A stretch of 64,000 nucleotides of DNA from a virus, in the IMG/VR virus record IMGVR_UViG_3300037483_000443, positions 32,001-96,000 of that record; one strand, 5' to 3'. The translations under genes were made by a program, and so were the position numbers. This document shows positions 3,727 through 60,685 of this stretch, piece by piece. Position 1 is the first letter of the stretch, and each line of letters opens with the position of its first letter. The notes beneath the pieces were generated by a model. It was not told the origin of the DNA and searched no databases. It saw nothing but the letters and a program-made list of their open reading frames with translations.

Positions 3727-6651
3727 ATGTCAGATCTTAACAACATTCTAACCAAGATAAACTCAACGATCGTAGCTCAGTCTGATTCCAGACTGTCGTT
3801 CTCATCACAATACGCATACAGTGTGACAGGCGCAATGAGCGGAACAACTACTCTCACGGGATATGTCGCGATTTACTCGATGACTAATGCTACATATCTG
3901 ACTGATCTTGTTCCAATTTCAGGAGGTGCATGGAGTACATCTACCGCGATTGCTGGAATCAAGATCATTGAAAACTGTGCAAGCGGTACGTTGAATGCTG
4001 CTGGAACAATTTCTTGTACAACAAACATCGTTACGGGGGTTGGTACTTCATTCACAACACAAGCTGTGGTAGGTGGGTTGATCTACGTCAACGGTCAGCG
4101 TGGCTGGATTCAGTCAATTCAAAATAACAATCAGCTTACTCTTTGGTCAAACGTTACTACATCTTTTTCTGGAGTTGCTTATTCAATTCTAGGACCAACG
4201 ATAGCTAGAACAATTTCAAATGGAACTCCTCCCTCACTTCCAGTAAGCTATGTAGTTCCATTTAACGATCCAGATTTTCAACAATCTGGTAGAGGAACGA
4301 AGAGCAATATAGAAGATGTTGGTTCTTACTTGTTAGTTTGTGCACGTAATCAAAATTTTACAACTGGTAATGCTGTAGTAGATGCTCTAACCTTGCTTTC
4401 AGGGTATGTAGATGCTAATTTGGGTACAATCGGTGCTTTGCCTATTACAGCTAACAGCTTTAATCTCTCAGTTGGAGATTTAAATTCAGTGCGAACTGGA
4501 GTTTCAGCTTGGGTTGGAACTGCTCTATGTGAGTACTATAAGTCTTCTGGATACATCCCTGCTCTCTCTTTAGCAGAGAAAATCGGTACTTATCTTCTGA
4601 GTGTTCAGGTATCACGGTTTTCAGTAAATGATCGTCGTTCTGGACTGATTGTAACTGGTCAAGATGCCGGGATTCTCTCGATTCAGGCATCAACAGAATC
4701 TAACGTTAACGCTTACTTCTTTTTCAAGGATCTTTACAGCCTAACTCTAAACATCACACACCGACAGGCTTATTTTGACATACAGTGGGGCTTGTTGAAC
4801 CATCTCTATGATGGTACTCTCGGTAGATTTTTGTACGGTACCTCGTCTACTACTGGAGATTACGCAGAGTCCATAAGCTTATATGCAGAGGGTGGCATAT
4901 TCTTGCTTGACTCAAATGAGGTTGATAAGTCAGTAGCCATCGCGACTAGAATGATGTCTAAATTCTATGTAACAGGCAAAACGATCGTCTTTGAAAATAA
5001 TTACCCATCTAAGTACAATCAAACATACTCGAACACAGCAGCTGCTAACGGATTGAGAGAAACAGCTCTTACAACAGATGGAGATACTACCAGCAGTTAC
5101 ATAAATCCTCCTGATTCAATTTCGGTTTACGGGACGCAGGAAGCTCTGTTGATGCTTTCTAGATTAAACAATCCAGCGTTTATCTCCCAACAATCAGATC
5201 TATCGGCTGGTCAGGAAATCATTTATAACACCATCGGTGACGGATCGATCGTCGGATATACTAGCTCTAGCCGTCTATCTCCGTACGAGTTCCAAGTGTG
5301 GCCGTCTTTGACAGCTTTGTGTTGGTGGTGGCTAAGAGCTTCTGCTTCAAGCTTACTTTACCCAACCACTACTGCGCTTCCACAATTCAGTTCTCTATTT
5401 GCGTTCCCTGGGTTTACCCAGGCTCAAGTTCAAACTCAGGGAGTTGTTTACTTGAATGAAACGCGCTTGAAATCATCTCAGTGGTCTGTTACGATGTCTG
5501 GTAATACACCGACCGTCATCGTCGATCCTACATTAATCAAGCAGGGGGACTTGATTAGAGCTGTTGTGAACCCTTATGTACCAACGATTAATGATTATGC
5601 GTTTGATCCGACGATAAGTGACACTAATCCTCTGTTGTTGAATCAATATAAGCAAGATATTCCGTATGTCACTGAAGTTCTAAGAGATTCAAATGACAAT
5701 TTGTCTATCACAAATTACTACTATTGGGCAAAAAATAAGACAACTATCGGTTTAGCTGGACAGCTTTCAACGGTCGACATTACTAACTTGATGACAGAAA
5801 ACTCTGACATCTATGCGATCCCACTACAACTCAAGCCGTACAATCAGACCGACGGACGTCCTAATCGTTATTCTCGGCTGACTATTAAGAGTTTGAATCG
5901 TGAAGTAAATGCTGTCAACCACTACAAGCTTCGATTGAACAAAAACCAAACTATGCGAGACCGTGATGAGAACAGCAACTTAAAACCGGTCTTCACCGAG
6001 TGGAAGCTGCTTCGTCGAGGACAGCTTGATCTAATTCCCCTTGACTTGTGGAATGTATTGGTAGATACATTAGCTGCGAGCACTCAATTAAATCTACCGC
6101 TCCCATACACTTCACTACAGCTATATGACAAGAAGAATAAAACTTCAGTTAGCTATGGATTGAATACAGGACAGGTAATGACAGATGCAGACATCGCGAT
6201 CGCTACCGTGAAGCATACGATTCTAAATACTCAAGTCAATAAATATGTCAACGGTTCATTCATACCTGATTACATTTCGTATACGCCATCTCCTGTGAAT
6301 GAGATGTACGGATCTTCTGGAATGTTTGACATTGCAATGCTTGATACATATTTTAGCACGACTGATAACATCAGACAACTTATGTCTGACTTGTGGCGTT
6401 TTGCAAAACCTGCACAGGTTAATGAGATTTTCTTCAATGTGTTGCAAGATATGGCTGCAAAGAGCCTGGAAATGGATTCTTTCTTTAAGACTTCATTCGT
6501 ATCTCTGAACGAGATCAAAGCAGTTACTGCTACAAATCAGACTTTGGATGTAGCTACAAGCGCTGCAACTACAACCGGTGCAACACTTTGGGATTTTGTA
6601 CCTACGCCAAATTGGGATAATCCACCACCGCCGACTAACTGGATAAACTAA
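3727..6651 (+). CDS. Structural protein with a central six-hairpin glycosidase-like domain and a baseplate-wedge-like C-terminus
   Basis: 974 aa; TAAATAG just upstream; [25 protein letters not shown] resembles an (alpha/alpha)6 barrel; C-terminal YYYWAK..FFKTSF. Confidence 0.5.
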
Positions 6652-19667: not shown

Positions 19668-20506
19668 AATGACCCTCGTTTGTGTAAATTTATGTAAGCT
19701 GTACGCTTTATCAAAAGTGCCGGGAAATCTATCCACACTTCATGGTCTCCGGTACCGCGTGAGAATGATTCAATGCGAACAGAGTGGAATCCGTTGGCTT
19801 CAGGCTCAAGTTTCTCAGCCAGATATCTTTCAGTTGAAGAGATGTGACGAGACAGCAGATCTTTGATGATCTTGGCATCTTCATTTGAGATACTCTCACC
19901 GATCGAGAGGTTCTTCTCAAGCTTATGACGATCTTCACCGATGATCTTGTCGATCTGCTTCAAAGCTGTCCTGAACTCACCGAAGGTTTTCGGCTTATAC
20001 TTCTTGATCTTCGTATCGGTCAACTGAGCAAAACTGTTCTGGACGGTGTCTAGCCAGTCAGTGAAAGTCTTATTATCAACCCGATCAAATCCGAGATTCT
20101 TGTGAAGGCCCTTGAAGCTGCGGTAGAATGAAGCACCCGGAGCTACACCTACTCGTGTTCCGTCAAGAGGGATCAGAACGTAGACATCATCTCCACCAAA
20201 GGTGCGATCAAAGTTAGTATAAGCCTTGATGAAACGAGAGCGACTAGGCATCCGGTTCCAAGACGGCATCTCCTTGATGAGCTTGTCAACCCAGAACTTA
20301 GAGCGTTCTTCCTTGGCTGCCGGGGTGACCAACATCATATCTGGACCGGTGTCTTGCCTGAAGAAGGGAGTGTGTTGCGCGATCAAGTGCGCATTCTTCG
20401 CCTTCTCTCTCAGCAGCTCTAGGAACTTACCTTCTGTAAGTTCACGGCGATGCTCTGCATCTGTAGGATCACCCTCGTTGAGGAAATGTTTGAAGTTTAA
20501 GTTCAT
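19664..20506 (-). CDS. Hypothetical protein, putative head-internal protein
   Basis: MNLNFKHFLNEG N-terminus; TAAATA promoter at 20512-20517. Confidence 0.55.
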   Translation of the reverse strand: MNLNFKHFLNEGDPTDAEHRRELTEGKFLELLREKAKNAHLIAQHTPFFRQDTGPDMMLVTPAAKEERSKFWVDKLIKEMPSWNRMPSRSRFIKAYTNFDRTFGGDDVYVLIPLDGTRVGVAPGASFYRSFKGLHKNLGFDRVDNKTFTDWLDTVQNSFAQLTDTKIKKYKPKTFGEFRTALKQIDKIIGEDRHKLEKNLSIGESISNEDAKIIKDLLSRHISSTERYLAEKLEPEANGFHSVRIESFSRGTGDHEVWIDFPALLIKRTAYINLHKRGSL

Positions 20507-20514
20507 CTACCTAT

Positions 20515-21192
20515 TTACAGCTTTGCGTAAAATTGGGTGACACGATTGAAAAGCTGTTCAACTAGATCTTCGGTGATAGTTTTCTTGAAAACAAGCGGCA
20601 GTTTGTTCTCGACTCCCATGAGAATGACCATCTTTTCAATGTTAGTACCAAACATCTCATTGTGCATGATCGCGTAAGCTGCACATTGTACCCAATAGTC
20701 ACCTATCTCATCAGCTGACTTGATCCTACTAGAAGTCTTGTAGTCAACAATCGCGATCTCTCCTTGATACTCGGCGATCAAGTCACAACGCCCTGCAACC
20801 CCCAGGGTATCAGAGTACAGAACGACTTCTTGACCGAATACTTTGTTGACCTTGTTAACTTCTAATCGAAGACTTTTAAACAGACGAGTGTGTGCTTCTG
20901 GAAAAGATTCTAGCTGAGGATCTTCATTGCGGAGATAGCGCTCCAACATTAAGTGAGTGTTGGTACCACGATCACATGCATCTTTTGAGATCTGGTCAGC
21001 TTTCTTGTTACCAACCCGAGCTCTCCAGTTTGCTAGAACATCTCTCTTCTCAGACTCAAGAGTGTTACCCAGAACAGTCGTGATGCTGGGGAACATCTTT
21101 TCATCCGAGATGCAGTAGACTCTACCGACACCTTGTAGGTTGGTAGTCTCGCAATCGAGATACTGAAAGGTGTCGAGAGCTAATTCAGTCAT
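20515..21192 (-). CDS. PD-(D/E)XK exonuclease
   Basis: PSITTVL, RGTNTH, EVVLYS..AGRCDLI..IVDYKTS, QCAAYA. Confidence 0.85.
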   Translation of the reverse strand: MTELALDTFQYLDCETTNLQGVGRVYCISDEKMFPSITTVLGNTLESEKRDVLANWRARVGNKKADQISKDACDRGTNTHLMLERYLRNEDPQLESFPEAHTRLFKSLRLEVNKVNKVFGQEVVLYSDTLGVAGRCDLIAEYQGEIAIVDYKTSSRIKSADEIGDYWVQCAAYAIMHNEMFGTNIEKMVILMGVENKLPLVFKKTITEDLVEQLFNRVTQFYAKL

Positions 21193-35057: not shown

Positions 35058-37022
35058 TCAATCAAACGACAGCAACTTCTTGACGGTTGCGGTGTGCTCG
35101 GTTGGAACGGTCCAACCGATCGGGTCAAAGATGTTCTTCAGCTTTTGATCAACCAACTTCTTCTCTGTTAGCTTAACGTCGATCTCAAATCGATCTGTGA
35201 ACCACTTCGGCAGATCTTCGGTTTCAGATGAGAACGCCATGCTGTCGTATCCGTGCTCGTTCTCCTTCAGCCACACGATCTTGATCTTGTCTCCTGACTT
35301 GATCGGGTGTGCTTCCTGGACGCTGAACATGTCTAGACAGAGGTTGTGGTTGATCGAGGACTTGACGTTGTTTGGCAGACGAGCGCTACCGAAACCAGGC
35401 TTCTCGATCCTTTCCCACTTCGCGAAGTACTCATCTAGGTTCTTGACTGAGGTGACAGTAGCAAACTCAAGAGGGTTGACTTTGTCTTCAACACTGTTCA
35501 AGTTCCGCCGGAACACCATTACATAATCCTCGACCGAGCTAACAGGCTCGTTGGTCAGGATTTTCAACGTCACATCCTTCAGCATCGTGCGGATGCGTTC
35601 AGGGGTGGAAGAGATCTTTATGTCAGAACCTTGGCTCTTCAACGCCTTGGGGTCTTCTGACTTGAGACGCTTACCTTCATTGTCTGCTACCAAGAGAATG
35701 TACTTCTTCTTGGCACGGAAGATTCCTGCCGATGCTACTACTTCTCGCCCGGCCTTGATCTTGTCATCAAAACCTGGCTGACAGAAGAATGCAGTTCTCA
35801 TGAACTCTGGGAATGAATTGTTGACCGCCGCAGCGACTGCATCTGCACACTCGATCGCAGATTCGATGTCAGTACCAACGAGAGCATCCATGACGAAATA
35901 GCACGAGTCTGTATCAGAATAGATCGGTCCAAGTCCCTTTGGAGTCTCCAGGGTATAAACGTTGACCGGATCACCGGACTTTTCATCAAATCCAATGGTC
36001 TTCACGACCTTCGGCGCATCAGGGCCGATCAAGTTTATTGAGACAGTCTCGATCATGTGAGTAGTTATCTGACGTCCTGAACCAGTGGTAGATGCTCCGA
36101 GACGAGAATCATGGAAACGACAGAATTCATTTAGGGTTGCGCCGTATGTAGAGTTCAACAATACCTTACGTACACCTTGCAGCATGTCATAGTATTCAGA
36201 CAGCTTTTGATGCTCAAGATAGGTTGGGTCTTCTTTGTTGCCGTCAGCTGCCTTTAGAGCTTCTTCTGCAAGCTTCGCATGCTTCTTCTTGAGACCCTGC
36301 ATCTCCTTGCGACCGTTGAACCAGTAGGTCAAAACGGCAGGGATGAGTCCTTCTCCGTTACCTTGATCTAGGATCGTACCATATCCAGATAACGCATACT
36401 TGTTGTCTTTCAGGAAGCGGATCATGTTACCTGCAGTGATCTCTAGACCTGCGTCAACCCGCTCGCCTTCTTCATCGAGCGGGTTGACTCCCTCAGGAAT
36501 GATCGTGACAGGCCGATTCTGGTATTCTTCGTTGTCAGGGTGGAGGTGAGCGTTGTAGACTGCTCTCCAACCTTCTTCATACTCAGCAAGCTGACCGACG
36601 ATCTTCTCAGGTGAGAGATTCAACGAGCGATATGTACTTGGGTACAGAGAGTTGATGTCGATGGAACCGATCATCTTGTGCAGACCCTTCTGTGGGTTCA
36701 ACACTAGAGCTCCCTCTACCTTTTGTCCAGCAGAGTGCTTCTTGTCAAAGACGATCTTCTTCATCTGCGTGTGACAGAAGTTGACGATCGCGGTGTCGAT
36801 CAGCTGCACAGAGCCGAAGATCGCGTTGAAGTTGACGGTCGCTTCGTGGACCATCGTATTTGCTAGTTCGATGTACTTGAACTTCTTGTCCAGGTCAACT
36901 AAGCACTTAACGTCGTGACGGTTGTAACGACAAAAGTTAATAAATGATAAATACTTTGTCTGTTGATCTTTTTGTTTATATAGAGCTTTAAGCTCTTCAT
37001 TTGATAATTGAGTATAGTCCAT
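35058..37022 (-). CDS. Family B DNA polymerase, C-terminal subunit (ExoIII plus polymerase domain)
   Basis: ExoIII YNRHDV; motif A DINSLYPS; motif B KVLLNSTYG; motif C YSDTDS; KKKY. Confidence 0.93.
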   Translation of the reverse strand: MDYTQLSNEELKALYKQKDQQTKYLSFINFCRYNRHDVKCLVDLDKKFKYIELANTMVHEATVNFNAIFGSVQLIDTAIVNFCHTQMKKIVFDKKHSAGQKVEGALVLNPQKGLHKMIGSIDINSLYPSTYRSLNLSPEKIVGQLAEYEEGWRAVYNAHLHPDNEEYQNRPVTIIPEGVNPLDEEGERVDAGLEITAGNMIRFLKDNKYALSGYGTILDQGNGEGLIPAVLTYWFNGRKEMQGLKKKHAKLAEEALKAADGNKEDPTYLEHQKLSEYYDMLQGVRKVLLNSTYGATLNEFCRFHDSRLGASTTGSGRQITTHMIETVSINLIGPDAPKVVKTIGFDEKSGDPVNVYTLETPKGLGPIYSDTDSCYFVMDALVGTDIESAIECADAVAAAVNNSFPEFMRTAFFCQPGFDDKIKAGREVVASAGIFRAKKKYILLVADNEGKRLKSEDPKALKSQGSDIKISSTPERIRTMLKDVTLKILTNEPVSSVEDYVMVFRRNLNSVEDKVNPLEFATVTSVKNLDEYFAKWERIEKPGFGSARLPNNVKSSINHNLCLDMFSVQEAHPIKSGDKIKIVWLKENEHGYDSMAFSSETEDLPKWFTDRFEIDVKLTEKKLVDQKLKNIFDPIGWTVPTEHTATVKKLLSFD

Positions 37023-37989
37023 GTGTAAATTGTATCCTATTCAAGAAGTAAAGAACATTTATCTTAATCAAATTTTAGAGCTCTCTACTAGTAATAAGTA
37101 TTCTATATGGTATAAAAACATAATTGAAAAAGCCCTTTCAAGAACTGAAATCGTTGAGGGAGAAAAACATCACATAATCCCAAGATCATTTAAACTCGGT
37201 GGAGAAAAAGATAAGCAAAATATCATAAAGCTAACATACCGTGAGCACTTTATATGTCACTTACTTCTTGCCAGAATGTTTCTTCATAAAGGTTATAAAG
37301 CTAAGATGATCAATGCTGTTCTTTATATTTGTTCTGGATTTCTCAGAGGAACTACAATTAGAAGTAATCCGTATGCTTCAAAAAGATATTCTCTTCATCG
37401 AAAGTCTATCGTTCTTATGTTGAGAGAAAAGGTAAAAGAAAAACTTTGGATCAATGATGGTACTATTTGTAAGCGAGTTAAATCACAAGAGCTCGATCAA
37501 TACATTTCTAATGGTTGGGCTCTTGGGAGAACATTCTTCAATCGACTAAAAGTAGAAACTGTAAATGATGGATTTGTCTGCAAGAGAATCCCTCGTGATG
37601 AGATTCAAATTTATCTTTCTTCTGGATGGATAAAAGGGCGTCTTCAGTCATACAAAGATAAGATCACTATTACAAATGGTAAGAAAAACATGAGAGTTCT
37701 TCCAGATCAGATTCCAAATGGGTTTTACAAAGGCTCTCACCTTAAAGCTAGTTTCGGTAAAATTTGGGTCAACAACGGCGCTGAAGAAAGATATGTCTCA
37801 AAAGTTTCATCAGGTTTTGTAAAAGGTCGACTTAAACAAATTCAATCTAAACATGTTAGAACCGGATTCTGTATAACAGATGGAACTTCTAAGAAATATG
37901 TTTATGATCTTAAAGAAGTTCCACCTGGTTGGAAGCTTCCAAAACGCTCTAAACGACGGAAAGACCCCGTTTTTCAAGCTCTTGTCTAA
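37021..37989 (+). CDS. Free-standing HNH homing endonuclease, antisense within the polymerase locus
   Basis: EKHHIIPRS..GG..NIIKLTYREHFICHLLL; repeated WINDG..GW..GR units; AT-rich; TAAATA at 36948-36953. Confidence 0.88.
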   Translation: MCKLYPIQEVKNIYLNQILELSTSNKYSIWYKNIIEKALSRTEIVEGEKHHIIPRSFKLGGEKDKQNIIKLTYREHFICHLLLARMFLHKGYKAKMINAVLYICSGFLRGTTIRSNPYASKRYSLHRKSIVLMLREKVKEKLWINDGTICKRVKSQELDQYISNGWALGRTFFNRLKVETVNDGFVCKRIPRDEIQIYLSSGWIKGRLQSYKDKITITNGKKNMRVLPDQIPNGFYKGSHLKASFGKIWVNNGAEERYVSKVSSGFVKGRLKQIQSKHVRTGFCITDGTSKKYVYDLKEVPPGWKLPKRSKRRKDPVFQALV

Positions 37990-38950
37990 TTCTCTCGCGC
38001 TCTACATTGACTTTATACAACTCATTTTGCTCGCTTTCTGACTTTAGAACTTTTAAGTTTGGACGATGAGTTCCGTGATACAGCTCGTAGAGAGTTCCCT
38101 CATAGTGCAACTTTGGAACATCTAGCTCTTCCTCGGTGATCGCTTGAAGAGAGAATGACTGGCGTCCACCGAGAGTGAACTTTTTGAAGAGAGCCATGTA
38201 GTCAAGATGGACACGACTCTGGAGGTCGAGAACGATCTCTTTCTGCTTGGATCCCTTAAAGCGATCCTTTTCACCCCAACGAGGAGTGGGACCGCCTTCA
38301 AAAGCAAGGCTGCGAAGAGCTGACTTACCGAAGAGCAGTTCGATGCGCTTGCCGATATATGGAAGGTCAAAGAACTCTGAGTTCCAGCCTGACAGTACGT
38401 CGACGTCATTACCAAGATCGAGGAACTGCTGGAGAAGTTCACGTTCACTGTTGCAGATGAAGTAGTTGTCTTCCAACATCTCCAGTGGAAGTTGGTTCAT
38501 TACTGACCAACCTGGAGGTGCGACCGCGAGAGTAAAGTATGCTTCAAGATCTGACCTGTAGAGAGTCAGTGCGTTGATCGGAGCATAGGGATTTTCAGGA
38601 CGAGCCCAACCGATGGTTGGGTCATAGTCGACTTCGATGTCGAGGAATCCGACTGTGAGAACAGGTACCTTCTTTCCCACGTAGGTCATCATGACCTTTT
38701 CTTGTGGGTGGAAATCACTCTCGAAGCGAGTCGGATAAGATCTACAAGCGTCATCAAAGTCGCGCTTGTTGTCGAATTCTATTTTCTTGAGAGATTCGCC
38801 GGTGAGGGCAGTAAAGGGGCCGTTCTTGTCAGGAACGTAGAAGAAATATGGACTGTCGTATTCACGCTTGATGCGCTTACCCGATTCTGACTTTTCCCAG
38901 ACGAGGACTTTGTCACGTCCACGTTCGTGATAGCTGCTGATAAAACTCAT
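37949..38950 (-). CDS. Family B DNA polymerase, N-terminal subunit (N-domain plus ExoI/ExoII)
   Basis: ExoI FLDIEVD; ExoII SGWNSEFFDLPY; HLDYMALFKKF..SFSLQAI; AGGAG SD before ATG 38950. Confidence 0.92.
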   Translation of the reverse strand: MSFISSYHERGRDKVLVWEKSESGKRIKREYDSPYFFYVPDKNGPFTALTGESLKKIEFDNKRDFDDACRSYPTRFESDFHPQEKVMMTYVGKKVPVLTVGFLDIEVDYDPTIGWARPENPYAPINALTLYRSDLEAYFTLAVAPPGWSVMNQLPLEMLEDNYFICNSERELLQQFLDLGNDVDVLSGWNSEFFDLPYIGKRIELLFGKSALRSLAFEGGPTPRWGEKDRFKGSKQKEIVLDLQSRVHLDYMALFKKFTLGGRQSFSLQAITEEELDVPKLHYEGTLYELYHGTHRPNLKVLKSESEQNELYKVNVERERIRQELEKRGLSVV

Positions 38951-39012
38951 GTTGACTCCTAAGAGTGATGGCATGTTAACGCCGAGGCACGCCAGGTCTC
39001 GGTCGTGTGGTA

Positions 39013-46945: not shown

Positions 46946-47167
46946 TTACTCTTTTGCTGCAAGGCGTTCAGCTTCAGCAGCAGCCTCTTCCTCAGCAGCA
47001 ATTCGTGCGGCAGTCTCGTCTTCAGTTTCTACCGGTGTTGGGTTGACTCTCTCACGCATCTTTGCAGACAAAACGGCATGCAAATTCTGATTAGCGGTTT
47101 CTGGGTCATCCTTGATGAAGCTGCTGATCACGTCACGCAGCTGGGCTTTGATTTCGTCTTGATCCAT
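46946..47167 (-). CDS. Small acidic late protein (possible prohead core-like)
   Basis: AGGAG SD; TATAAATA at 47216-47223. Confidence 0.55.
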   Translation of the reverse strand: MDQDEIKAQLRDVISSFIKDDPETANQNLHAVLSAKMRERVNPTPVETEDETAARIAAEEEAAAEAERLAAKE

Positions 47168-47260
47168 CTTGATCTCCTTTGGTATAATGAAGTGATCGCC
47201 TCGCGATCTACCTTCTATTTATACTTCCAGAGACCTTGATGTTTTGCAACTAAGCTCTAC

Positions 47261-47455
47261 TTAGACACTTTGCGTTTCCTCTAACAGGTGCAAGTCACAA
47301 TCTAGCACCTCACACCACACGACCCCCGGCTCTTCGATCTTCTCAAACTGATGCCAGAACCGATGATCACCTGGGTAGCGTTCACGTCCCATGTAAGCCA
47401 AGCGTTCTGGTTGGTTTCTCCAGTTGTACTTTCCGCCAATCTTCATTTCATGCAT
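47261..47455 (-). CDS. Hypothetical protein
   Basis: AAGGAG SD; IGGKYNWRNQPERL..WHQFEK..VWCEVL. Confidence 0.65.
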   Translation of the reverse strand: MHEMKIGGKYNWRNQPERLAYMGRERYPGDHRFWHQFEKIEEPGVVWCEVLDCDLHLLEETQSV

Positions 47456-47480
47456 GTTCTGTCTCCTTATAGAGGCTGCG

Positions 47481-47954
47481 TTAGCTTGGAAGTTTGTACA
47501 ATACTTTCTTGAAGTCATCACCGATCGTCTCGTCGATGATCGTGCTGATGATCTTCCAGTTGCCACCGCCGAGGCCAGCTCCGATCATCGGGAAGATGAT
47601 GTCAAGCTTCTTGCAGTCTTTTTCACGGTTAAGGTGGACACTTCTTGCAATCTCTTTGACTTTTTCAAAACATTTAGCGACAGCTTCATAGTCAACATGG
47701 CGTTTATCGGTACCGTATTGAATTTGTGTCATAGCGTTGACGATGATCTTGTTTGGAGCTACTTCACAGTCAATGATGTTTCCTGACGTCAAACCATAGC
47801 GAGTGAAACATTCTCTGTAGACCCGGAAGGCTTCTGGAAAGCGTCTCTTTACCTCAGCTGCGATACCTGAGCCCATTACACCCTGACAATTACATCCATG
47901 TACGATGATCCCTTCGGGGACGTCGAGGGCGTTGCCGAAACGTTCTTCGATCAT
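47481..47954 (-). CDS. Macro domain (ADP-ribose binding/hydrolase) protein
   Basis: GNALD, HGCNCQGVMGSGIA, NAMTQ, PMIGAGLGGGNW. Confidence 0.9.
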   Translation of the reverse strand: MIEERFGNALDVPEGIIVHGCNCQGVMGSGIAAEVKRRFPEAFRVYRECFTRYGLTSGNIIDCEVAPNKIIVNAMTQIQYGTDKRHVDYEAVAKCFEKVKEIARSVHLNREKDCKKLDIIFPMIGAGLGGGNWKIISTIIDETIGDDFKKVLYKLPS

Positions 47955-48134
47955 TTTAGTACTCCCATTATCAATTTAGTTCCTGCTGTCTCTTTCGAGC
48001 CGACTTGTCGGCCTGGAACGTGTCCCAGATCGGCTCGTACTCTTCCCAAGTCAACTCCGGCTTTATGTGCTTGCATATGTCGAACCATTCAACCTTGTCG
48101 AATTCATGCAGTTTGGCATCGTCTTTTGTGTTCA

Positions 48135-48416
48135 TTAAATACTTCCTTCGGTGGAGTCCTTCACAGGGAAGACCTTGTATGCCCGAATGTTGACTTTGTC
48201 AGAATCTTGAGACCAAGTCTTTTCGAATGGTTGACCGTAGAGGAAGTTTTGTACTTTCTCCACGGAGAGAGACAACAAGTTTTTAGGTGTGAACTTCACT
48301 GCTCGCCCCACGACAGTTCGATCATGTCCATCCGAGCTGGTAGAGTATCCGTAGAGTTGACCCATGATGATCTCATTTCCGAGAGCATCAACCGATCCAT
48401 ACTTTTCTTCGCTCAT
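48135..48416 (-). CDS. Hypothetical protein
   Basis: ATGA coupling with upstream gene. Confidence 0.55.
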   Translation of the reverse strand: MSEEKYGSVDALGNEIIMGQLYGYSTSSDGHDRTVVGRAVKFTPKNLLSLSVEKVQNFLYGQPFEKTWSQDSDKVNIRAYKVFPVKDSTEGSI

Positions 48417-48601
48417 TTCTGCTCCCATTTCAAGTCATTATCATCGTTGACTGTGTAAACACCCTTACCCTGTGCATCGTAGATATACGGAGATCCGCAG
48501 CAACCACATCCACCAATCACGATACCATGCTTCTCCGAGAGCTTACCCAGCTCTTCAAGAAACTTTTTTGTATTTGCTGCTTTTTGCTGTTGATCATTCA
48601 T
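48413..48601 (-). CDS. Hypothetical protein (GCGCCGSP motif)
   Basis: LSEKHGIVIGGCGCCGSP; AAGGAG SD. Confidence 0.65.
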   Translation of the reverse strand: MNDQQQKAANTKKFLEELGKLSEKHGIVIGGCGCCGSPYIYDAQGKGVYTVNDDNDLKWEQK

Positions 48602-48723
48602 GATTTCTCCTTAACGTAAACTTGTTGAATGTTGCGAACGAATCCAGCTTTCTCATCCACGTCTAAACGGCTAGGTCTCCGCAAATGTCGTTCCGCCACA
48701 ACGTGCAATATCAAATGGCAGGC

Positions 48724-49074
48724 TCATACCTGCTCCTTACGCTTGGATGCGGCAAGACGGAGTTCTTCTTCCATTTGCAGTTTGAGTTGGATTAAATCTT
48801 CTTCGTTTGAGCCAGCATGTATTGCAGTAATTGCCAATGCCATAGATGAGATTCTTGCCTCTGCAATCTTTTCTTCCAGCCATTGCGTAGCCAATGGCTC
48901 TGTGGCAGAGAGTGCTAATTCAAATTTCCTGCTGCTCTTCCCTATATTCCGCTGATCGTCTTTCTCTCTACGCAGGAAGTCTGTTATAAGATCAACCAGC
49001 ATCGCCCTCTCACGCTTGAGAGATTCGTTCTCCAAGTAAAGTGCATCAGCAAAATTCCGATTTGGGTCACTCAT
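48724..49074 (-). CDS. Hypothetical coiled-coil protein
   Basis: AAGGAG SD, 116 aa. Confidence 0.55.
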   Translation of the reverse strand: MSDPNRNFADALYLENESLKRERAMLVDLITDFLRREKDDQRNIGKSSRKFELALSATEPLATQWLEEKIAEARISSMALAITAIHAGSNEEDLIQLKLQMEEELRLAASKRKEQV

Positions 49075-49189
49075 GCTTTATTCTCCTTGGTGGTGATTGG
49101 TGTGGATGGGCGGATGATGAGTGGCTTTTCATATCGAGACATTTTGCAACCGCGATGCGGGTATCCGTCCGCACCAATCGGTCTTACGT

Positions 49190-49675
49190 TCATGCTTTGC
49201 TCCAATCAAAATCAGATCGAAAGTCAGAATCAACTACAGGTTGAGGGTTAGCTACCTTCGGCTGCCAGTCATATTGCCGCCCTACTGTAATGTGCAGCCT
49301 GTAGTCAAGACGCAGACCGAGCTCTTTGCGGATCTCGATGAGGCGAGGAGATTCAACAGTCAGAGACCAGAACTGCCAGTGACGTTCCAAGCGAGACGGA
49401 TCATACATGAGCTCGATTTCATGCCCGGCATACTTCTTCCAGAGGTTAAGTCGATCTTTAGAGATACGCTCATCGCCCTTGACCACAGTGCAGTGAACGC
49501 CGAACATCGGACGTTGAAGAGTCAGCCACTGACCGTACTTCTTAGTGAGGAACCATTGGTAGTAGAGGTCAAGCTGATCACGTGGCAATTGCACGATGAG
49601 AGTGCGTTGCTTGTGAGTTTTCTTGAAGTCCTGACGAACAGGATCGTAAACGAGCTTGCCTTTAACTTTGATCAC
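49190..49675 (-). CDS. 2H phosphoesterase
   Basis: Two HxT motifs (VHCTV, LHITV) about 65 aa apart in a 161-aa protein. Confidence 0.75.
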   Translation of the reverse strand: MIKVKGKLVYDPVRQDFKKTHKQRTLIVQLPRDQLDLYYQWFLTKKYGQWLTLQRPMFGVHCTVVKGDERISKDRLNLWKKYAGHEIELMYDPSRLERHWQFWSLTVESPRLIEIRKELGLRLDYRLHITVGRQYDWQPKVANPQPVVDSDFRSDFDWSKA

Positions 49676-49691
49676 TTTGTGATCTCCTGTT

Positions 49692-49768
49692 TGGTGCGAC
49701 TGGGGAGGATCGAACTCCCGTTGACGCGGATTTAGAGTCCGCCGCTAAAACCACTCAGCTACAATCGC
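49692..49768 (-). tRNA. tRNA with CUA anticodon (amber suppressor)
   Basis: GCGATTG/CAGTCGC acceptor, A73, CCA; anticodon arm GCGGA-CTCTAAA-TCCGC; T arm GGGAG-TTCGATC-CTCCC. Confidence 0.88.
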
Positions 49769-49784
49769 GTTATTTGATAAGAGA

Positions 49785-49813
49785 ATTATATCATGTGCAT
49801 CTAGAAAGTAAAC
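49785..49813 (-). promoter_or_regulatory. T4-like early (sigma70) promoter
   Basis: GTTTAC..TGATATAAT immediately upstream of the tRNA(CUA). Confidence 0.8.
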
Positions 49814-49817
49814 ACTT

Positions 49818-50147
49818 TTACCACCGGCTCAAAACATCTTTGTCAGTTTCATCGATCTCCGGGAGCAACGGCAGAAACCGATCTTTGTTGTCGATGATCC
49901 ACTGACAAGTATCTACCCAGCCGTGATCTGTTTCACGGACTTCCGCCGAGTACGGGCGTAGATATGTGATCAAGTATATTGCAACCCCGTGAGGAAATTC
50001 TATTCCAGCTTCCTCAAAGTCCGGTTTGTAGGAATAGCACTTATCACCGTGAGCTCCGATGATTCCGGCATTTAGCTCCCAATCGAGATTGAGCTTCGCA
50101 AAGAATGCCGGAAGATGCTTCTCAAGCCATTTGTAGTGATCGATCAT
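49818..50147 (-). CDS. Hypothetical protein
   Basis: 109 aa, coupled. Confidence 0.6.
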   Translation of the reverse strand: MIDHYKWLEKHLPAFFAKLNLDWELNAGIIGAHGDKCYSYKPDFEEAGIEFPHGVAIYLITYLRPYSAEVRETDHGWVDTCQWIIDNKDRFLPLLPEIDETDKDVLSRW

Positions 50148-50332
50148 GATGCCTTCCCACGGTGAGTAACTTGAAATCCGGCGCGACGTGCAGCATCAAT
50201 TACATCGTTGACACTGTGTTCATATTTGCGCCTACAGTCACGATGGCCCTTCATGTAGCCGATTATGAATCCTGTCGTTCCTCCAATAGTACCGAAGAAT
50301 AACCATCCCATCAGCAAAGCGTGGTCGTTCAT
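50144..50332 (-). CDS. Small membrane protein
   Basis: N-terminal TM segment. Confidence 0.5.
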   Translation of the reverse strand: MNDHALLMGWLFFGTIGGTTGFIIGYMKGHRDCRRKYEHSVNDVIDAARRAGFQVTHRGKAS

Positions 50333-50583
50333 TACTTGACTCCCTTAGAGATCGTGGCGAAGCAGCGTCCGGGGATGAACGAAGCTGAGAAGTCAGTTCT
50401 GCGAATTTCGTTTCGTTCTTTGATCGACTTTTTGTCCCATGCAACACAGCGAATGAGGGTTTCAGGATCGGGAGTGTACGGAGTAGAGATACCCCAGACT
50501 TTCTTACCTTCTACTTGGGTGATGAAGTGTCCAGCGATAACTTCACCGACTTTGGGACGAGCATTCAGGATGACGTCGGTCAT
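50332..50583 (-). CDS. Hypothetical protein
   Basis: 83 aa, coupled. Confidence 0.5.
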   Translation of the reverse strand: MTDVILNARPKVGEVIAGHFITQVEGKKVWGISTPYTPDPETLIRCVAWDKKSIKERNEIRRTDFSASFIPGRCFATISKGVK

Positions 50584-50585
50584 TT

Positions 50586-50837
50586 CTACCTCGCGATGTA
50601 CATGATGGCTACAACTTCTTCGATGTTATCAACCGGGTGAAACACCCCGACGACATCGCCTTGGTCTAAACGTTGGAATCCCATCGGATAGTTGGGGTCG
50701 GATGAGATGACTTCATCGACCAGATCGGCAATGTCGTCGCCTGCATAGTCGATTGAGTTCAGACGTTCTTCACCGACGTAGAAGTCTCCCTCGACTCCGT
50801 TGAACGTCACCAGATATTTGCCGGATGGAGTCTTCAT
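50586..50837 (-). CDS. Hypothetical acidic protein
   Basis: 83 aa, GGAG SD. Confidence 0.55.
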   Translation of the reverse strand: MKTPSGKYLVTFNGVEGDFYVGEERLNSIDYAGDDIADLVDEVISSDPNYPMGFQRLDQGDVVGVFHPVDNIEEVVAIMYIAR

Positions 50838-50838
50838 C

Positions 50839-50961
50839 TCAGTATGCTCCCAGAGCGAGTTGTTTACCGCGGGCTCGGCTTACATGCTTTCCAAATTTTG
50901 CTTTGTGGCGACCGGTACCAGAAGATTTTGAGTGCTTTGCGACGAAATTATTTGTTTTCAT
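50839..50961 (-). CDS. 40-aa basic early peptide (absent from ORF track)
   Basis: GGAGG SD; MKTNNFVAKHSKSSGTGRHKAKFGKHVSRARGKQLALGAY. Confidence 0.7.
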   Translation of the reverse strand: MKTNNFVAKHSKSSGTGRHKAKFGKHVSRARGKQLALGAY

Positions 50962-50987
50962 ATTACCTCCGTTGATTTAATGGAGTA

Positions 50988-51016
50988 ATTATATCAAAGC
51001 ACTCAAGAAAGTAAAC
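50988..51016 (-). promoter_or_regulatory. T4-like early promoter
   Basis: GTTTACTTTCTTGAGTGCTTTGATATAAT. Confidence 0.8.
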
Positions 51017-51024
51017 AACTTTGT

Positions 51025-51195
51025 TCAGTCTTTTGACCAACCGCCACCGGAAAGTTTAGTTCTCCATTGCGGAGATTGACAGTGAGTACATTGTCGATGT
51101 TGAATGTTATTGAAGTGAATGCTACTGCGACCTTTAGTAGAGACCCAACTACCGTAAGTGTGAAAACCGAGTTTGCAAAGAATCTTGTCAAGCAT
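51025..51195 (-). CDS. 56-aa Zn-finger-like protein (DUF1660-like; absent from ORF track)
   Basis: GGAGG SD; MLDKILCKLGFHTYGSW..HRQCTHCQ. Confidence 0.65.
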   Translation of the reverse strand: MLDKILCKLGFHTYGSWVSTKGRSSIHFNNIQHRQCTHCQSPQWRTKLSGGGWSKD

Positions 51196-51305
51196 CTTTC
51201 CCTCCGTTAATACTCGTCAGCTCTGTTCACTACTTAGTGAACAGAGCTGCATCTTCCATCGCGAGAAAGCTCTCACGGATGAATTTATAGATGCAGCTCC
51301 AAACG

Positions 51306-52085
51306 TTAGAAAAGATCTTCAACGGTTAGATCAGACATATATGGCAGTTCAACCGGCTTCACCGGTCGACGCGTCACTAACTCAGTGGTACGGTGCTTCT
51401 CGGGAATCTTTGCTAGCTCAAGCTCAGTGAGAGGGCGCTTCTCCTCAACGCGACGGAAGTAAGTCCCCTTCCGGTAGCAAGAAGCATAGTTCTCCCACGG
51501 ATCACCGATCTCACGCAGCATCTGCTTCTTTGCTTCACTGCTAGCTCCATGCAGCACTCTGTCAGAGAAGTGTGCTTGGGCTACCATCGAGATAGAGTTC
51601 TTGATCGCATCTTTCTCACGCCACAGTAAGCACTGGTAAGCTTCATGTAGCGTAGGAACTTGCCATACTCGTGCATCAAACAGCGGCAGAGCATCTGCTT
51701 TTTCAGGTAAGACAGCTGCCAAGTGTTTGTTGAAGTACGCAGTGGCAGTTGCCGAGAGAATCGAGCAGATCTTTTGGTAGCGTCCGTCAAAAATGTACTC
51801 TTGAACTGCGTCTGCTGGAAAGAACCAAACAAGAGTTATCTCATCTGATTGAGTGTAACCGATTAAGGCACAAGTTTGCTCGACGAGGTACTTTGTGGTG
51901 TCTTGCATCAGCTTCGTCAGATTCTCATCAAAAGGGCGCTTCAACCCCTTCGTGAAGGTGTGAAATGCTCGCCCGTCAAGCCTAGCAATCATCGGCATCC
52001 CGATCATGGCTTTACGAGAACCTTCTACTCCCTCGAGAGCTTTCATCTTGTCGCCGAGGGTATCGTTCTTTGCTATGTTTGTCAT
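51306..52085 (-). CDS. tRNA-His guanylyltransferase Thg1-like protein
   Basis: ARLDGRAFHTFT, GYTQSDEITL, FDARV, WREKDAIKNSI. Confidence 0.92.
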   Translation of the reverse strand: MTNIAKNDTLGDKMKALEGVEGSRKAMIGMPMIARLDGRAFHTFTKGLKRPFDENLTKLMQDTTKYLVEQTCALIGYTQSDEITLVWFFPADAVQEYIFDGRYQKICSILSATATAYFNKHLAAVLPEKADALPLFDARVWQVPTLHEAYQCLLWREKDAIKNSISMVAQAHFSDRVLHGASSEAKKQMLREIGDPWENYASCYRKGTYFRRVEEKRPLTELELAKIPEKHRTTELVTRRPVKPVELPYMSDLTVEDLF

Positions 52086-53389
52086 TTTCTCTTGTTCCAA
52101 AGTGCGATTGCAGAATACACTGCTTCGTTCCCAACGATCGCGCCAGACCCTGTTCGACCCCCTGTATCACTCGGTCCGCAAGCCCCGCAGTTGCATGAGA
52201 CATATACTGAAGTTGCCGGTTGACCAGAGTACGAGATTCCGTTCGGCTGTGATCCACAGAATGGGCAGGATTTCAGCTCTCCGATGAAAGCATTCCGGAC
52301 GATCTCAGATTTCGTCTTTAAGACAAAGCTCTTGATCTCTGACGGCTTCAGGCCTTTCACCATCTCTGTAAAGTCCAACTCCAACAAATCGTTGAAAGTG
52401 TTCTCAAGATTGGTGAAGAAGTCTTTTGCTTTATCGTCGAATCGATCCAACTTTTCCAACTTTTTCGTCAACGTGATCATGTTATACAGGTCGCCGTTCT
52501 TGATTTCTTCACGAAACGCATCGAAGACCTTAACGATCTGCTCAATCTCTGGCTCGCCAGACAACCGAACGATTTGAAAGATCTCGTCAACTTTCTGCAT
52601 GAACTTGCAATAACGTGCTACGTCGCTCGGAACGCGGAACTTTTCCAGCTGTTCCTTGGTCATAGTGCCTACTTCCAAGAACAAGAACTGCTTCTCATCT
52701 AGTGAGAGAATTTCCTCTACCTCATCGGTGTATAGACAGGGAATGACTAGTCCCTTCAGACGTTCAACCAAGTGCAGAGCACCGATGCTTAGCAAGAAGT
52801 TGATACCGATACTAGGACGTTTCTCCGACAACAGCTTGGTCATCTCCGTCCAAATCCGGTCAGCAGACAGGGCGTCCAGTTCACCGCTCTCTACTAGCTT
52901 ACGGCAGAGCTCGACAGTTTCGGGAGCGATCTTGAACCTGTAGCGAGAAGCGAAGCGAGCAACGCGGATGACCCGCAGAGGATCTTCGGCGAAGGCTTCA
53001 CTCGTGTGACGGATGATGCCGTCCTTCAGATCCTGACGACCATGCCAAGGATCGATGTACTCACCGGTCTCCAAGTTGTAAGCGATCGCGTTGATCGTCA
53101 GATCACGACGCAGCAGGTCGTCGTTGATGATGATGTGCGGTCCGAACTCGAACTCAAAGCCTTGGTAGCCAGCAGCGACTTTCTTTTCACGACGAGCAAG
53201 AGCATACTCATCACCGGTTTCAGGATGGAGGAAGACGGGGAATGAAGCTCCGACCTGCTTGAAACCTTGGTCGAGCATGTATTGAACGTCGGCCCCGACT
53301 ACGACGTAATCAAGATCTTTCGGCTCATTGCCGAGAAGCTTGTCTCTTACTGCGCCGCCAACGAGCAGGCATTGAACTTTTTTAGTCAT
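52082..53389 (-). CDS. cca: tRNA nucleotidyltransferase (CCA-adding class II) with C-terminal Lar-like Zn finger
   Basis: VGGAVRD, DLDYV, EYALARRE, DLLRRDLTINA, EDPLRVIRVARF; C-terminal LKSCPFCG..SCNCGA..AIALWNKR. Confidence 0.92.
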   Translation of the reverse strand: MTKKVQCLLVGGAVRDKLLGNEPKDLDYVVVGADVQYMLDQGFKQVGASFPVFLHPETGDEYALARREKKVAAGYQGFEFEFGPHIIINDDLLRRDLTINAIAYNLETGEYIDPWHGRQDLKDGIIRHTSEAFAEDPLRVIRVARFASRYRFKIAPETVELCRKLVESGELDALSADRIWTEMTKLLSEKRPSIGINFLLSIGALHLVERLKGLVIPCLYTDEVEEILSLDEKQFLFLEVGTMTKEQLEKFRVPSDVARYCKFMQKVDEIFQIVRLSGEPEIEQIVKVFDAFREEIKNGDLYNMITLTKKLEKLDRFDDKAKDFFTNLENTFNDLLELDFTEMVKGLKPSEIKSFVLKTKSEIVRNAFIGELKSCPFCGSQPNGISYSGQPATSVYVSCNCGACGPSDTGGRTGSGAIVGNEAVYSAIALWNKRK

Positions 53390-60049: not shown

Positions 60050-60685
60050 TTAACCGATTTTTTCACCGGTGACATGGTTTGTTACAATGTCATCTTGGCT
60101 ACGATATGTTTTAATCTTATCACCACGCATCCCAGCTCCTCGAAGATCTCTCTTTTCATCGTTCTTTCGTTTCTGCTCTTGATTAGAAAAATAACTTCTA
60201 ACTTTTGCTTCAAGAAGAGATCTAGCATTTTTCTTGTTGGTATGTTGACAACGCTCTCTAGCAATTGCTTCTATTCCAGTAGGAATGTGCCGCATGACAA
60301 CACATGAGTCTGTTGTATTAACATGTTGTCCACCCGGACCGCTAGATTTCTTGGTGAAGACCGTGATGTCACGATCGTTCAACTTCCACTCAGCTTCTTC
60401 TGGAACGATCATTGCTACTACCGTCACTGTTGAAGTGTGAACTCGTCCTTTACGTTCAGTGGGTGGGATTCGTTGCCACCGGTGACCGCCCGACTCTTGG
60501 AGCAATCCCCGGACGAGATTGTCTGGCCCATCGATCGTTAGATTGATTCAGCCGTGTTGCTCTTCAAAGTCAACTCGAGCGTTGATCCGCTCTGCAAATC
60601 GTGCGTAGATGGTAGCTTGGTCATTGACCAAGAGCTTTGCGTCTTCTCCGCCCTCACCTGGGCGGATCTCTAAACTGATCTTCAT
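60050..60685 (-). CDS. RF1-type peptide chain release factor lacking domain 1, with in-frame TGA at codon 46 (60548-60550)
   Basis: AGGAG SD, then MKISLEIRPGEGGEDA..EEQHG*INLTIDG..ESGGHRWQRIPPTERKGRVHTS..SSGPGGQHVNTTDS, all in one frame. Confidence 0.88.

Follow-up and report, generated by a model that had tools for sequence, protein, structure and literature searches.

An amber-suppressor tRNA of standard-code jumbo phages and its probable target, a UAG-headed Pth2-type hydrolase gene

The window considered here is a stretch of 64,000 nucleotides (G000:C1:32001-96000) of a 135,654-bp virus record, which was estimated by CheckV to be 37% complete. The record is a fragment of a jumbo phage of about 350 kb; its proteins are 33 to 40% identical to those of the approximately 350-kb jumbo phages RsoM2USA, XbC2, CBB, GAP32, and BF, and it possesses 43 tRNA genes and one tmRNA. 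Two tRNAs were called by ARAGORN in the window, one of which, on the minus strand, has the anticodon CTA at position 34. This tRNA and its immediate surroundings comprise the following features.

49692..49768, minus strand: tRNA with anticodon CUA, of the amber-suppressor type (ARAGORN; Rfam RF00005)
49785..49812, minus strand: sigma-70-like phage promoter with TTTACT, a 16-nt spacer, and an extended -10 element, TGATATAAT (from sequence)
49190..49675, minus strand: gene for a 161-aa 2H-phosphoesterase-like protein with a GTG start (from sequence; HxT motifs; PHROG 12204)

The 77-nt tRNA was found to score 57.8 bits against the Rfam tRNA family (gathering score, 29; E value, 7e-10) and has an anticodon loop of sequence CUCUAAA, a G1-C72 pair, A73, and an encoded CCA end. 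The complete cloverleaf with the loop CU-CUA-AA that had been noticed in the original prediction is hence supported by the ARAGORN call, by the Rfam score, and by the sequence. ARAGORN assigned the label 'Pyl' because of the anticodon alone. Pyrrolysine tRNAs have an atypical shape characterized by a short variable loop, a small D-loop, and a long anticodon stem; the tRNA of the window has an ordinary D-loop with GG, a 5-bp anticodon stem, and a 6-nt variable loop, and does not have the shape of a tRNA-Pyl.

On the minus strand, TTTACT-N16-TGATATAAT is followed by 16 nt that separate the -10 element from the first base of the tRNA, by the 77-nt tRNA itself, and by a further 16 nt between its CCA end and the GTG codon of the 161-aa gene, which is preceded by an AGGAG site. 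Given that the space after the tRNA is too small for a terminator, the tRNA and the 2H-phosphoesterase-like gene are necessarily co-transcribed. The promoter is one of a family: the 135.6-kb record contains 21 copies of the motif TTTACW-N16-18-TAYAAT, all but one of them in minus-strand orientation, compared with an average of 0.56 over 50 shuffles, and BLAST identified five more copies of the promoter motif in the record. The claim that the tRNA lies 16 nt below an early-type phage promoter is therefore well founded.

The protein encoded downstream has two conserved HxT motifs (H61 and H128) and scores 22.4 bits against Pfam 2H-SAK, under the cut-off of 27. At locus L052 (positions 4001-5017), which corresponds to the closest complete relative, G002, the 2H-phosphoesterase-like gene is fused to a C-terminal macro-domain-like region with the motif NCQGVMGAGIA, which we take to be that of a macro domain; by analogy, this pairing is reminiscent of steps that clear tRNA-splicing by-products. 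According to PHROG assignments, replication, nucleotide, and tRNA-handling genes surround the tRNA(CUA), among them those for a Thg1-like guanylyltransferase and a CCA-adding enzyme at 51306-53389. Elsewhere in the window, a DNA polymerase gene is split on the minus strand into 37949-38974, which ends in TAG, and 35058-37022, with a plus-strand homing-endonuclease gene (37021-37989) in between, and looks like an intron or a split gene rather than a case of readthrough. A phage tmRNA with the tag ANDANGALALAA is found outside the window at G000:C1:107431-107757 and in G002 at 306555-306937, and other relatives have tmRNAs with different tags.

The sequence of the locus was compared with Logan contigs. 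One independent contig, from run X1, which is possibly the source sample, is identical across 49100-50200 in a contig-level comparison. Matches in runs X2 and X3 are confined to the promoter repeat. A 180-nt contig of the RNA-library run X5 covers 49669-49771; it stems from a relative and has the same anticodon, with C32 read as U, and is no evidence of transcription.

The phage uses the standard genetic code, as follows from three observations. Stop-to-stop ORFs of at least 100 codons span 88% of the record when read in this code; the stretches past TAG stops are short and not coding-like; and there is no excess of genes running on into the next one, with in-frame run-on for 7 of 95 TAG-ended genes versus 89 of 986 TAA/TGA-ended genes in G000 and its complete relatives G002 and G003 together (Fisher p, 0.71). 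Genes were called with a crude in-house ORF scorer based on codon usage and not with a validated gene finder; of 159 such genes in the record, 71 end in TGA, 70 in TAA, and 18 in TAG (about 11%), in agreement with the original statement that TAG terminates a minority of genes. In the complete relatives G002 and G003, TAG ends 55 of 480 and 22 of 445 genes, respectively. A code-15-like recoded phage was rejected as a description, as TAG ends genes in all three genomes and in-frame TAG is conserved only at the leader gates described below. It had also been noted that several TAG stops are backed up by a second stop. Such backups are present at 50586 and 60738, but they are not enriched over chance: a stop within three codons follows 17% of TAG-ended, 20% of TAA-ended, and 28% of TGA-ended genes in this record, and 17 to 25% of TAG-ended versus 20 to 28% of TAA/TGA-ended genes across the three genomes. 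The description of the tRNA(CUA) as one of the amber-suppressor type, transcribed from an early-type promoter and belonging to a phage that keeps the standard code, is supported.

Conservation of the tRNA was assessed at 16 loci, 15 metagenomic and one viral, that encode relatives of the 161-aa protein with 41 to 79% amino acid identity. At 13 of these 16 loci a tRNA with the anticodon CUA (UUA in one case) occupies the syntenic place. With ARAGORN, a CUA tRNA was detected directly upstream of the 2H gene at 10 loci, one of which (L054) has two copies, and a UUA tRNA at a further locus; CUA tRNA-like sequences at L059 (38.4 bits) and L064 (27.9 bits, just under the gathering score) were seen by Rfam or inspection only. 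Neither a CUA nor a UUA tRNA was found beside the 2H gene at L049, L055, and L063. An alignment of 14 syntenic tRNAs revealed covariation at 17 of 22 predicted stem pairs, the pairing being kept by changes on both sides, and invariance of T35, A36, A37, and A38. In total, 35 CUA tRNAs and one UUA tRNA were identified in related phages, all with the loop N-Y-CUA-AA. As CUA is kept across deep divergence and in the presence of compensatory stem changes, the suppressor anticodon is under selection. The discriminator base of these 36 suppressor tRNAs is mostly A, with G and U also occurring, sometimes within one genome.

Several variants were observed in these tRNAs. Four of the suppressor tRNAs (L053, L059, ME3 [L235], and G008 192413-192488) have C33 in place of the near-universal U33, resulting in the loop CCCUAAA. 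The UUA tRNA (L060 3899-3973), of the ochre type, is at the syntenic site and by wobble could read both UAA and UAG. ARAGORN also called tRNA-like genes with four-base anticodons, namely, 'ctag' at G006 129464-129543, directly after the tRNA(CUA) of that genome, and 'ttgt' at G000:C1:118310-118386. A megablast search of 47000-52000 against GenBank phages returned no match, and scans with the exact anticodon-arm pattern detected no close tRNA homologue, the best of 40 viral loci agreeing at 60 of 74 bases and the metagenome yielding none. In a blastn search of the tRNA against phages, the partial matches (78 to 93%) were to a stretch called as tRNA-Cys by ARAGORN, which is unannotated, and to tRNA-Asn and tRNA-Pro, and they are uninformative on amino acid identity.

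It had been stated that no long gene at the locus needs TAG readthrough. This is true of the window, but the genome does have such a gene, which encodes a Pth2-like protein with a conserved TAG at codon 3. It came to light in a genome-wide scan for conserved in-frame TAG, for which the sequence past every TAG was checked in G000 and in the whole of G002 and G003.

G000:C1:121007-121369 (locus L111 1508-1870; 89007-89369 on the scale of the window, outside it), minus strand: Pth2-like peptidyl-tRNA hydrolase gene (from sequence; PTH2)

This gene of about 117 aa is common to the three genomes and is preceded in frame by a TAG and, just before it, by a strong ribosome-binding site and an ATG. The leader reads AAGGAG-N5-ATG CTG TAG ATT in G000, ATG TTG TAG ATT in G003, and ATG AAA GCA GCT CTG TAG GTT in G002. 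Past the gate TAG, the first ATG, GTG, or TTG is 95 codons downstream in G000, and there is no such start in the G002 gene. In G000 the gene is located about 40 kb from the tRNA(CUA); a separate promoter, which belongs to the family of that of the tRNA, serves it and begins at record position 121451. Besides the leader gates, no other conserved in-frame TAG was detected in this sub-clade (complete G002 and G003, and the G000 fragment). Eight TAG-ended genes that run in frame into the next gene were inspected; seven were rejected as fusions, being unmatched or one-sided in the other genomes, and the eighth (G002 243953) leads to the Pth2 gate. Also set aside were an ORF with ATG, four codons, and TAG at G000 10968, which is without a homologue in G002 and G003 and has a start 11 codons later, and an all-frame TAG-to-X BLAST, the 451 spanning hits of which were mostly off-frame or antisense matches of homologous DNA.

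The G000 hydrolase scores 23.0 bits against Pfam PTH2 (PF01981), which equals the cut-off, over profile positions 6-104 of 115. An AF2 model was generated with an eight-sequence alignment (pLDDT, 66), and in a Foldseek search with it ranks 1 to 11 and 13 were all Pth2-family structures, most with TM scores of 0.68 to 0.76 and E values down to 5.5e-6, and one NMR entry with a TM score of 0.46. The matches include AF2095, Sulfolobus Pth2, and human Bit1; the entries TA0108, MJ0051, PH1539, and Bit1 are members of this family. The product of the gated gene thus matches Pth2 both in sequence and in its modelled fold.

A leader composed of ATG, 1 to 12 codons, TAG, and a purine was found to head the Pth2-like gene in 23 phage records. 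In IMG/VR, 7 of 11 loci carry the leader TAG, down to 34% identity, and the other four, which encode one identical protein, have a plain ATG start. A tblastn search matched 33 GenBank phage records, of which 15 were examined. The gate is present in 13 of these, namely, RsoM2USA, XacN1, Xoo-sp13, CBB, GAP32, fHe-Yen9-03, pEa_SNUABM_19, BF, XbC2, Kaldavass, LR756511, Arash, and ME3, and absent from RaK2 and Hallingskeid. Among the gated phages, XacN1, RsoM2USA, GAP32, CBB, BF, ME3, and Arash have been cultured. Two further gated records are RAS14 and LR756501. In XacN1, Xoo-sp13, and RAS14 (loci L196, L207, and L265) the gate heads a fusion of an HD domain and Pth2, and G003 has a separate HD-domain gene (about 20437-21012 of G003:C1) with its own leader, ATG ACG TAG, for the protein of which tblastn gave no match in G005 to G009. 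Most of the GenBank records either have no annotation for the Pth2-like gene or begin it too far downstream, so that its conserved N-terminal strand is lost, presumably because of the leader TAG; this applies to RsoM2USA, BF, pEa_SNUABM_19, fHe-Yen9-03, CBB, GAP32, XbC2, Kaldavass, Arash, and XacN1. In the 735-kb uncultured phage LR756501.1, the same gene (687574-689055; L266) has an internal in-frame TAG in addition to that of its leader, which suggests wider TAG recoding in that genome. Another phage, Atu_ph07, carries a UCA suppressor (PMC6102473) and was absent among the matches of both Pth2 queries.

The stop codon of the gate is invariably TAG (21 of 21 leaders). TAG is the rarest stop in these genomes, ending 5 to 22% of the genes of gated phages, and TAA is the commonest in most of them, with TGA equalling TAA in G000. 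The base that follows is a purine in all 21 leaders (A in 14 and G in 7), and a purine after UAG is a context that favours suppression. The next codon is ATT in 6 of the 21 leaders (5 of 20 on the Pth2-like gene, plus LR756501), and a non-start codon (GTT, AAT, AAC, ACC, or GTA) in the other 15.

Gate and suppressor were found to occur together. At least one tRNA(CUA) is present in all 20 gated genomes that were scanned (7 metagenomic and 13 GenBank), a count that leaves out G010, RAS14, and LR756501. There is one copy each in G000, G002, G003, and G006, two each in G007 and G008, and three in G005, and in the 13 gated GenBank records the tRNA(CUA) is mostly 1 to 8 kb from the gated gene. The ungated phages RaK2 and Hallingskeid have nine Rfam tRNA hits each, none of them CUA. 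The exception is G009, a 58% fragment, which has an ungated Pth2-like gene yet one tRNA(CUA); the tRNA may therefore have other targets or uses.

Judging from these sequence comparisons, the tRNA is probably a working amber suppressor, the conserved job of which is to decode a single gate UAG that heads the phage gene for a Pth2-type hydrolase. In some relatives it would also gate an HD-domain gene or an HD-Pth2 fusion. Transcription from the sigma-70-like promoter yields a tRNA-mRNA in which the tRNA forms the 5' part and the 2H-phosphoesterase-like gene follows; from this transcript the tRNA would be released by host RNase P and a 3' endonuclease, and it would be charged by a host synthetase. 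Full-length hydrolase would then be produced only when the charged tRNA(CUA) out-competes RF1 at the gate codon, so that hydrolase output would be set by the ratio of phage suppressor to RF1 and could act as a delay or as a sensor of termination capacity. The inserted amino acid probably matters little, given that the leader around the gate is not conserved and that A73, G73, and U73 all occur among the tRNAs. As a side effect, genes with a TAG stop, which are roughly 11% of those of the phage and also include host genes, may be expected to be read through in part. Further points against the link to the gate are that in this sub-clade the tRNA(CUA) is about 40 kb from the gene and not beside it, and that the suppressor would extend the products of the 18 of 159 phage genes with a TAG stop, for which no compensating backup stops were seen.

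A second gene relevant to stop-codon reading is present in the window.

60050..60685, minus strand: RF1-like release factor gene without domain 1 (Pfam RF-1 and PCRF; NCBIfam)

In the original prediction, the tRNA(CUA) shares the genome with a UGA-gated RF1-type factor, and the Pfam and NCBIfam matches bear this out. The product scores 186 bits against the NCBIfam RF1 model versus 112 for RF2, and it has a GGQ motif and a PPT tripeptide, the latter in line with RF1 under the PxT/SPF rule. It is not a standard prfA, since the 186 bits compare with a cut-off of 400 and the match starts at model position 106, domain 1 being absent. A single-protein search with it detected no viral relative. The in-frame TGA is at codon 46 (60548-60550 of the window) and is conserved as HG*INLT at the same site in G000 and G002 and as KG*LLV nearby in G003. 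No tRNA(UCA) is present in the complete genomes G002 and G003; the UGA in the RF1-like gene is hence a real barrier. The companion of the tRNA(CUA) is RF1-like and not an RF2.

Such a factor would work against suppression. The alternative favoured by the original prediction is a timed switch in which the tRNA(CUA) suppresses UAG early and the UGA-gated RF1-like factor restores UAG termination later. The presence of both genes, the conservation of the in-frame TGA in G000, G002, and G003, the early-type promoter of the tRNA, and the absence of tRNA(UCA) from complete G002 and G003 all agree with a switch of this kind. The factor is, however, no general partner of the tRNA. Among the gated phages searched with the RF-1 family, RsoM2USA lacks an RF-1 domain though the tRNA(CUA) and the gated gene are present, and the RF-1 domain hit in G005 and G006, both of which keep the tRNA(CUA), is a short GGQ-type protein without the codon-reading domain. 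The RF1-like gene is therefore a lineage-specific addition. With RsoM2USA gated in the absence of an RF-1 domain, a switch between tRNA and RF1 is needless to explain the tRNA, and it leaves the conserved TAG in the hydrolase gene unexplained. We thus consider the timed switch unlikely, although the RF1-like factor could balance or modulate suppression without being required for the role of the tRNA; behind its in-frame UGA, it may temper readthrough in this sub-lineage.

Alternatively, the tRNA might be a general suppressor without a dedicated target, which either disturbs UAG termination in the host or is a neutral passenger, with the leader being a mini-uORF and ribosomes reinitiating at the codon after it to produce the hydrolase. 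Minigenes of two codons are known as elements of translation, and ATT is a rare start codon, so that termination and reinitiation are possible for the 6 of 21 leaders in which it follows the TAG. The tRNA(CUA) of G009, with its ungated gene, also fits a general suppressor. Against this stand the non-start codons in the remaining 15 leaders, the use of TAG in every leader though TAA is the commonest stop in most genomes, and the distribution of the tRNA(CUA), found in 20 of 20 gated genomes and in neither of the ungated RaK2 and Hallingskeid. A suppressor without a dedicated target consequently appears rather improbable, and decoding of the gate UAG is preferred.

The gate could also mark a stage on the way to TAG recoding of the whole genome, or what is left of such recoding, with the hydrolase gate as the first or last recoded codon. 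In the model of Borges et al. (10.1101/2021.08.26.457843), as set out in part of that source, acquisition of the suppressor precedes the build-up of in-frame TAGs, and standard-code relatives of recoded phages with an acquired suppressor tRNA are described in the same part. The two in-frame TAGs in the gated gene of the 735-kb LR756501 would be in line with such a course. However, the position and context of the gate are the same across distant phages (33 to 74% amino acid identity) in which TAG still ends 5 to 22% of the genes, and this constancy points to a stable, selected state and not to a transition; a transitional state is thus very improbable. Finally, the tRNA might be a tRNA-Lys(CUU) rendered functionless by a chance or assembly-derived U36-to-A change. 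The caveat that a single base separates the two was raised initially, and the tRNA-Lys(CUU) of the phage does have the same anticodon stem. This reading can practically be dismissed, since outside the anticodon arm no other tRNA of the phage agrees at more than 53 of 77 bases, 35 related tRNAs keep the anticodon CUA across deep divergence and with compensatory changes in their stems, and the independent Logan contig is identical.

Decoding of the gate UAG by the phage tRNA would have parallels in known systems. The RF2 gene prfB is autoregulated by an in-frame UGA and a +1 frameshift and senses its own product. As in prfB, the synthesis of a termination or rescue factor would hang on an early in-frame stop and could sense termination capacity; unlike in prfB, the frame is unchanged, a dedicated suppressor tRNA is encoded, and what would be sensed (RF1) is not what is produced (Pth2). 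The RF1-like gene differs from prfB as well, its TGA also being in frame. Phage lambda has 'bar' minigenes of two codons, which become toxic under Pth limitation and are separate elements that end in TAA or TGA. They resemble the gate in that a very short ORF (ATG, one codon, and a stop) is tied functionally to peptidyl-tRNA hydrolase, and differ from it in that the mini-ORF described here shares the frame of the hydrolase gene and is joined to it via TAG.

A comparison can also be drawn with the code-change module known from Lak, crAss-like, Jade, and Agate phages, in which RF2 goes with TAG recoding, according to the part of Borges et al. (10.1101/2021.08.26.457843) considered here. To the extent covered there, the resemblance is that a phage tRNA(CUA) reads in-frame TAG in a standard-code host, that a release-factor gene is present alongside, and that the idea of a stop codon gating the expression of particular phage genes applies to both. 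The present phages differ from recoded ones in that one gene (two in G003) has an in-frame TAG, located at its very start, and TAG ends 5 to 22% of genes. Relative to the recoded phages as described in that part, the gated gene encodes a translation-rescue enzyme instead of a structural or lysis protein, and the factor is RF1-like and TGA-interrupted instead of RF2.

CUA suppressors of other standard-code jumbo phages have been reported previously. Two were described in XacN1, the targets of which could not be identified, readthrough having been tried only at annotated gene ends, as stated in part of that report (PMC5852040). A CUA suppressor was also reported for RsoM2USA, and the corresponding part of that paper names no target beyond UAG being abundant (PMC8504454). 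These orphan suppressors are of the same kind as the tRNA studied here, and both phages also have the gated Pth2-like gene. Relative to what these parts of the two reports cover, the target proposed here is a leader of 2 to 12 codons that is skipped by gene callers. The presence of PTH2 in jumbo phages was noted by Iyer et al. 2021, in a text from which the terms 'suppressor' and 'stop codon' are absent. A search of titles and the beginnings of abstracts, with subscription-only literature and supplements outside its scope, found no paper that links PTH2 to phage suppressor tRNAs.

More tentatively, many standard-code jumbo phages might run a stop-codon circuit for rescue factors, in which tRNA(CUA) competes with RF1 at a UAG 3 to 13 codons into Pth2, the hydrolase reports termination capacity, the RF1-like gene is likewise gated by UGA in a sub-lineage, and such gates are the seed of genome-wide TAG recoding; we regard this as a possible but doubtful extension of the gate reading. 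Through the gate UAG, the amber-suppressor tRNAs of standard-code jumbo phages such as XacN1 and RsoM2USA would gain a concrete target that is testable in cultured phages, and a widespread Pth2-type gene proves to be missing from or truncated in GenBank annotations. Furthermore, the notion of recoding as regulation, which concerns late and lysis genes where recoded phages are considered, would be extended to standard-code phages and, in these, to one gene for translation rescue.
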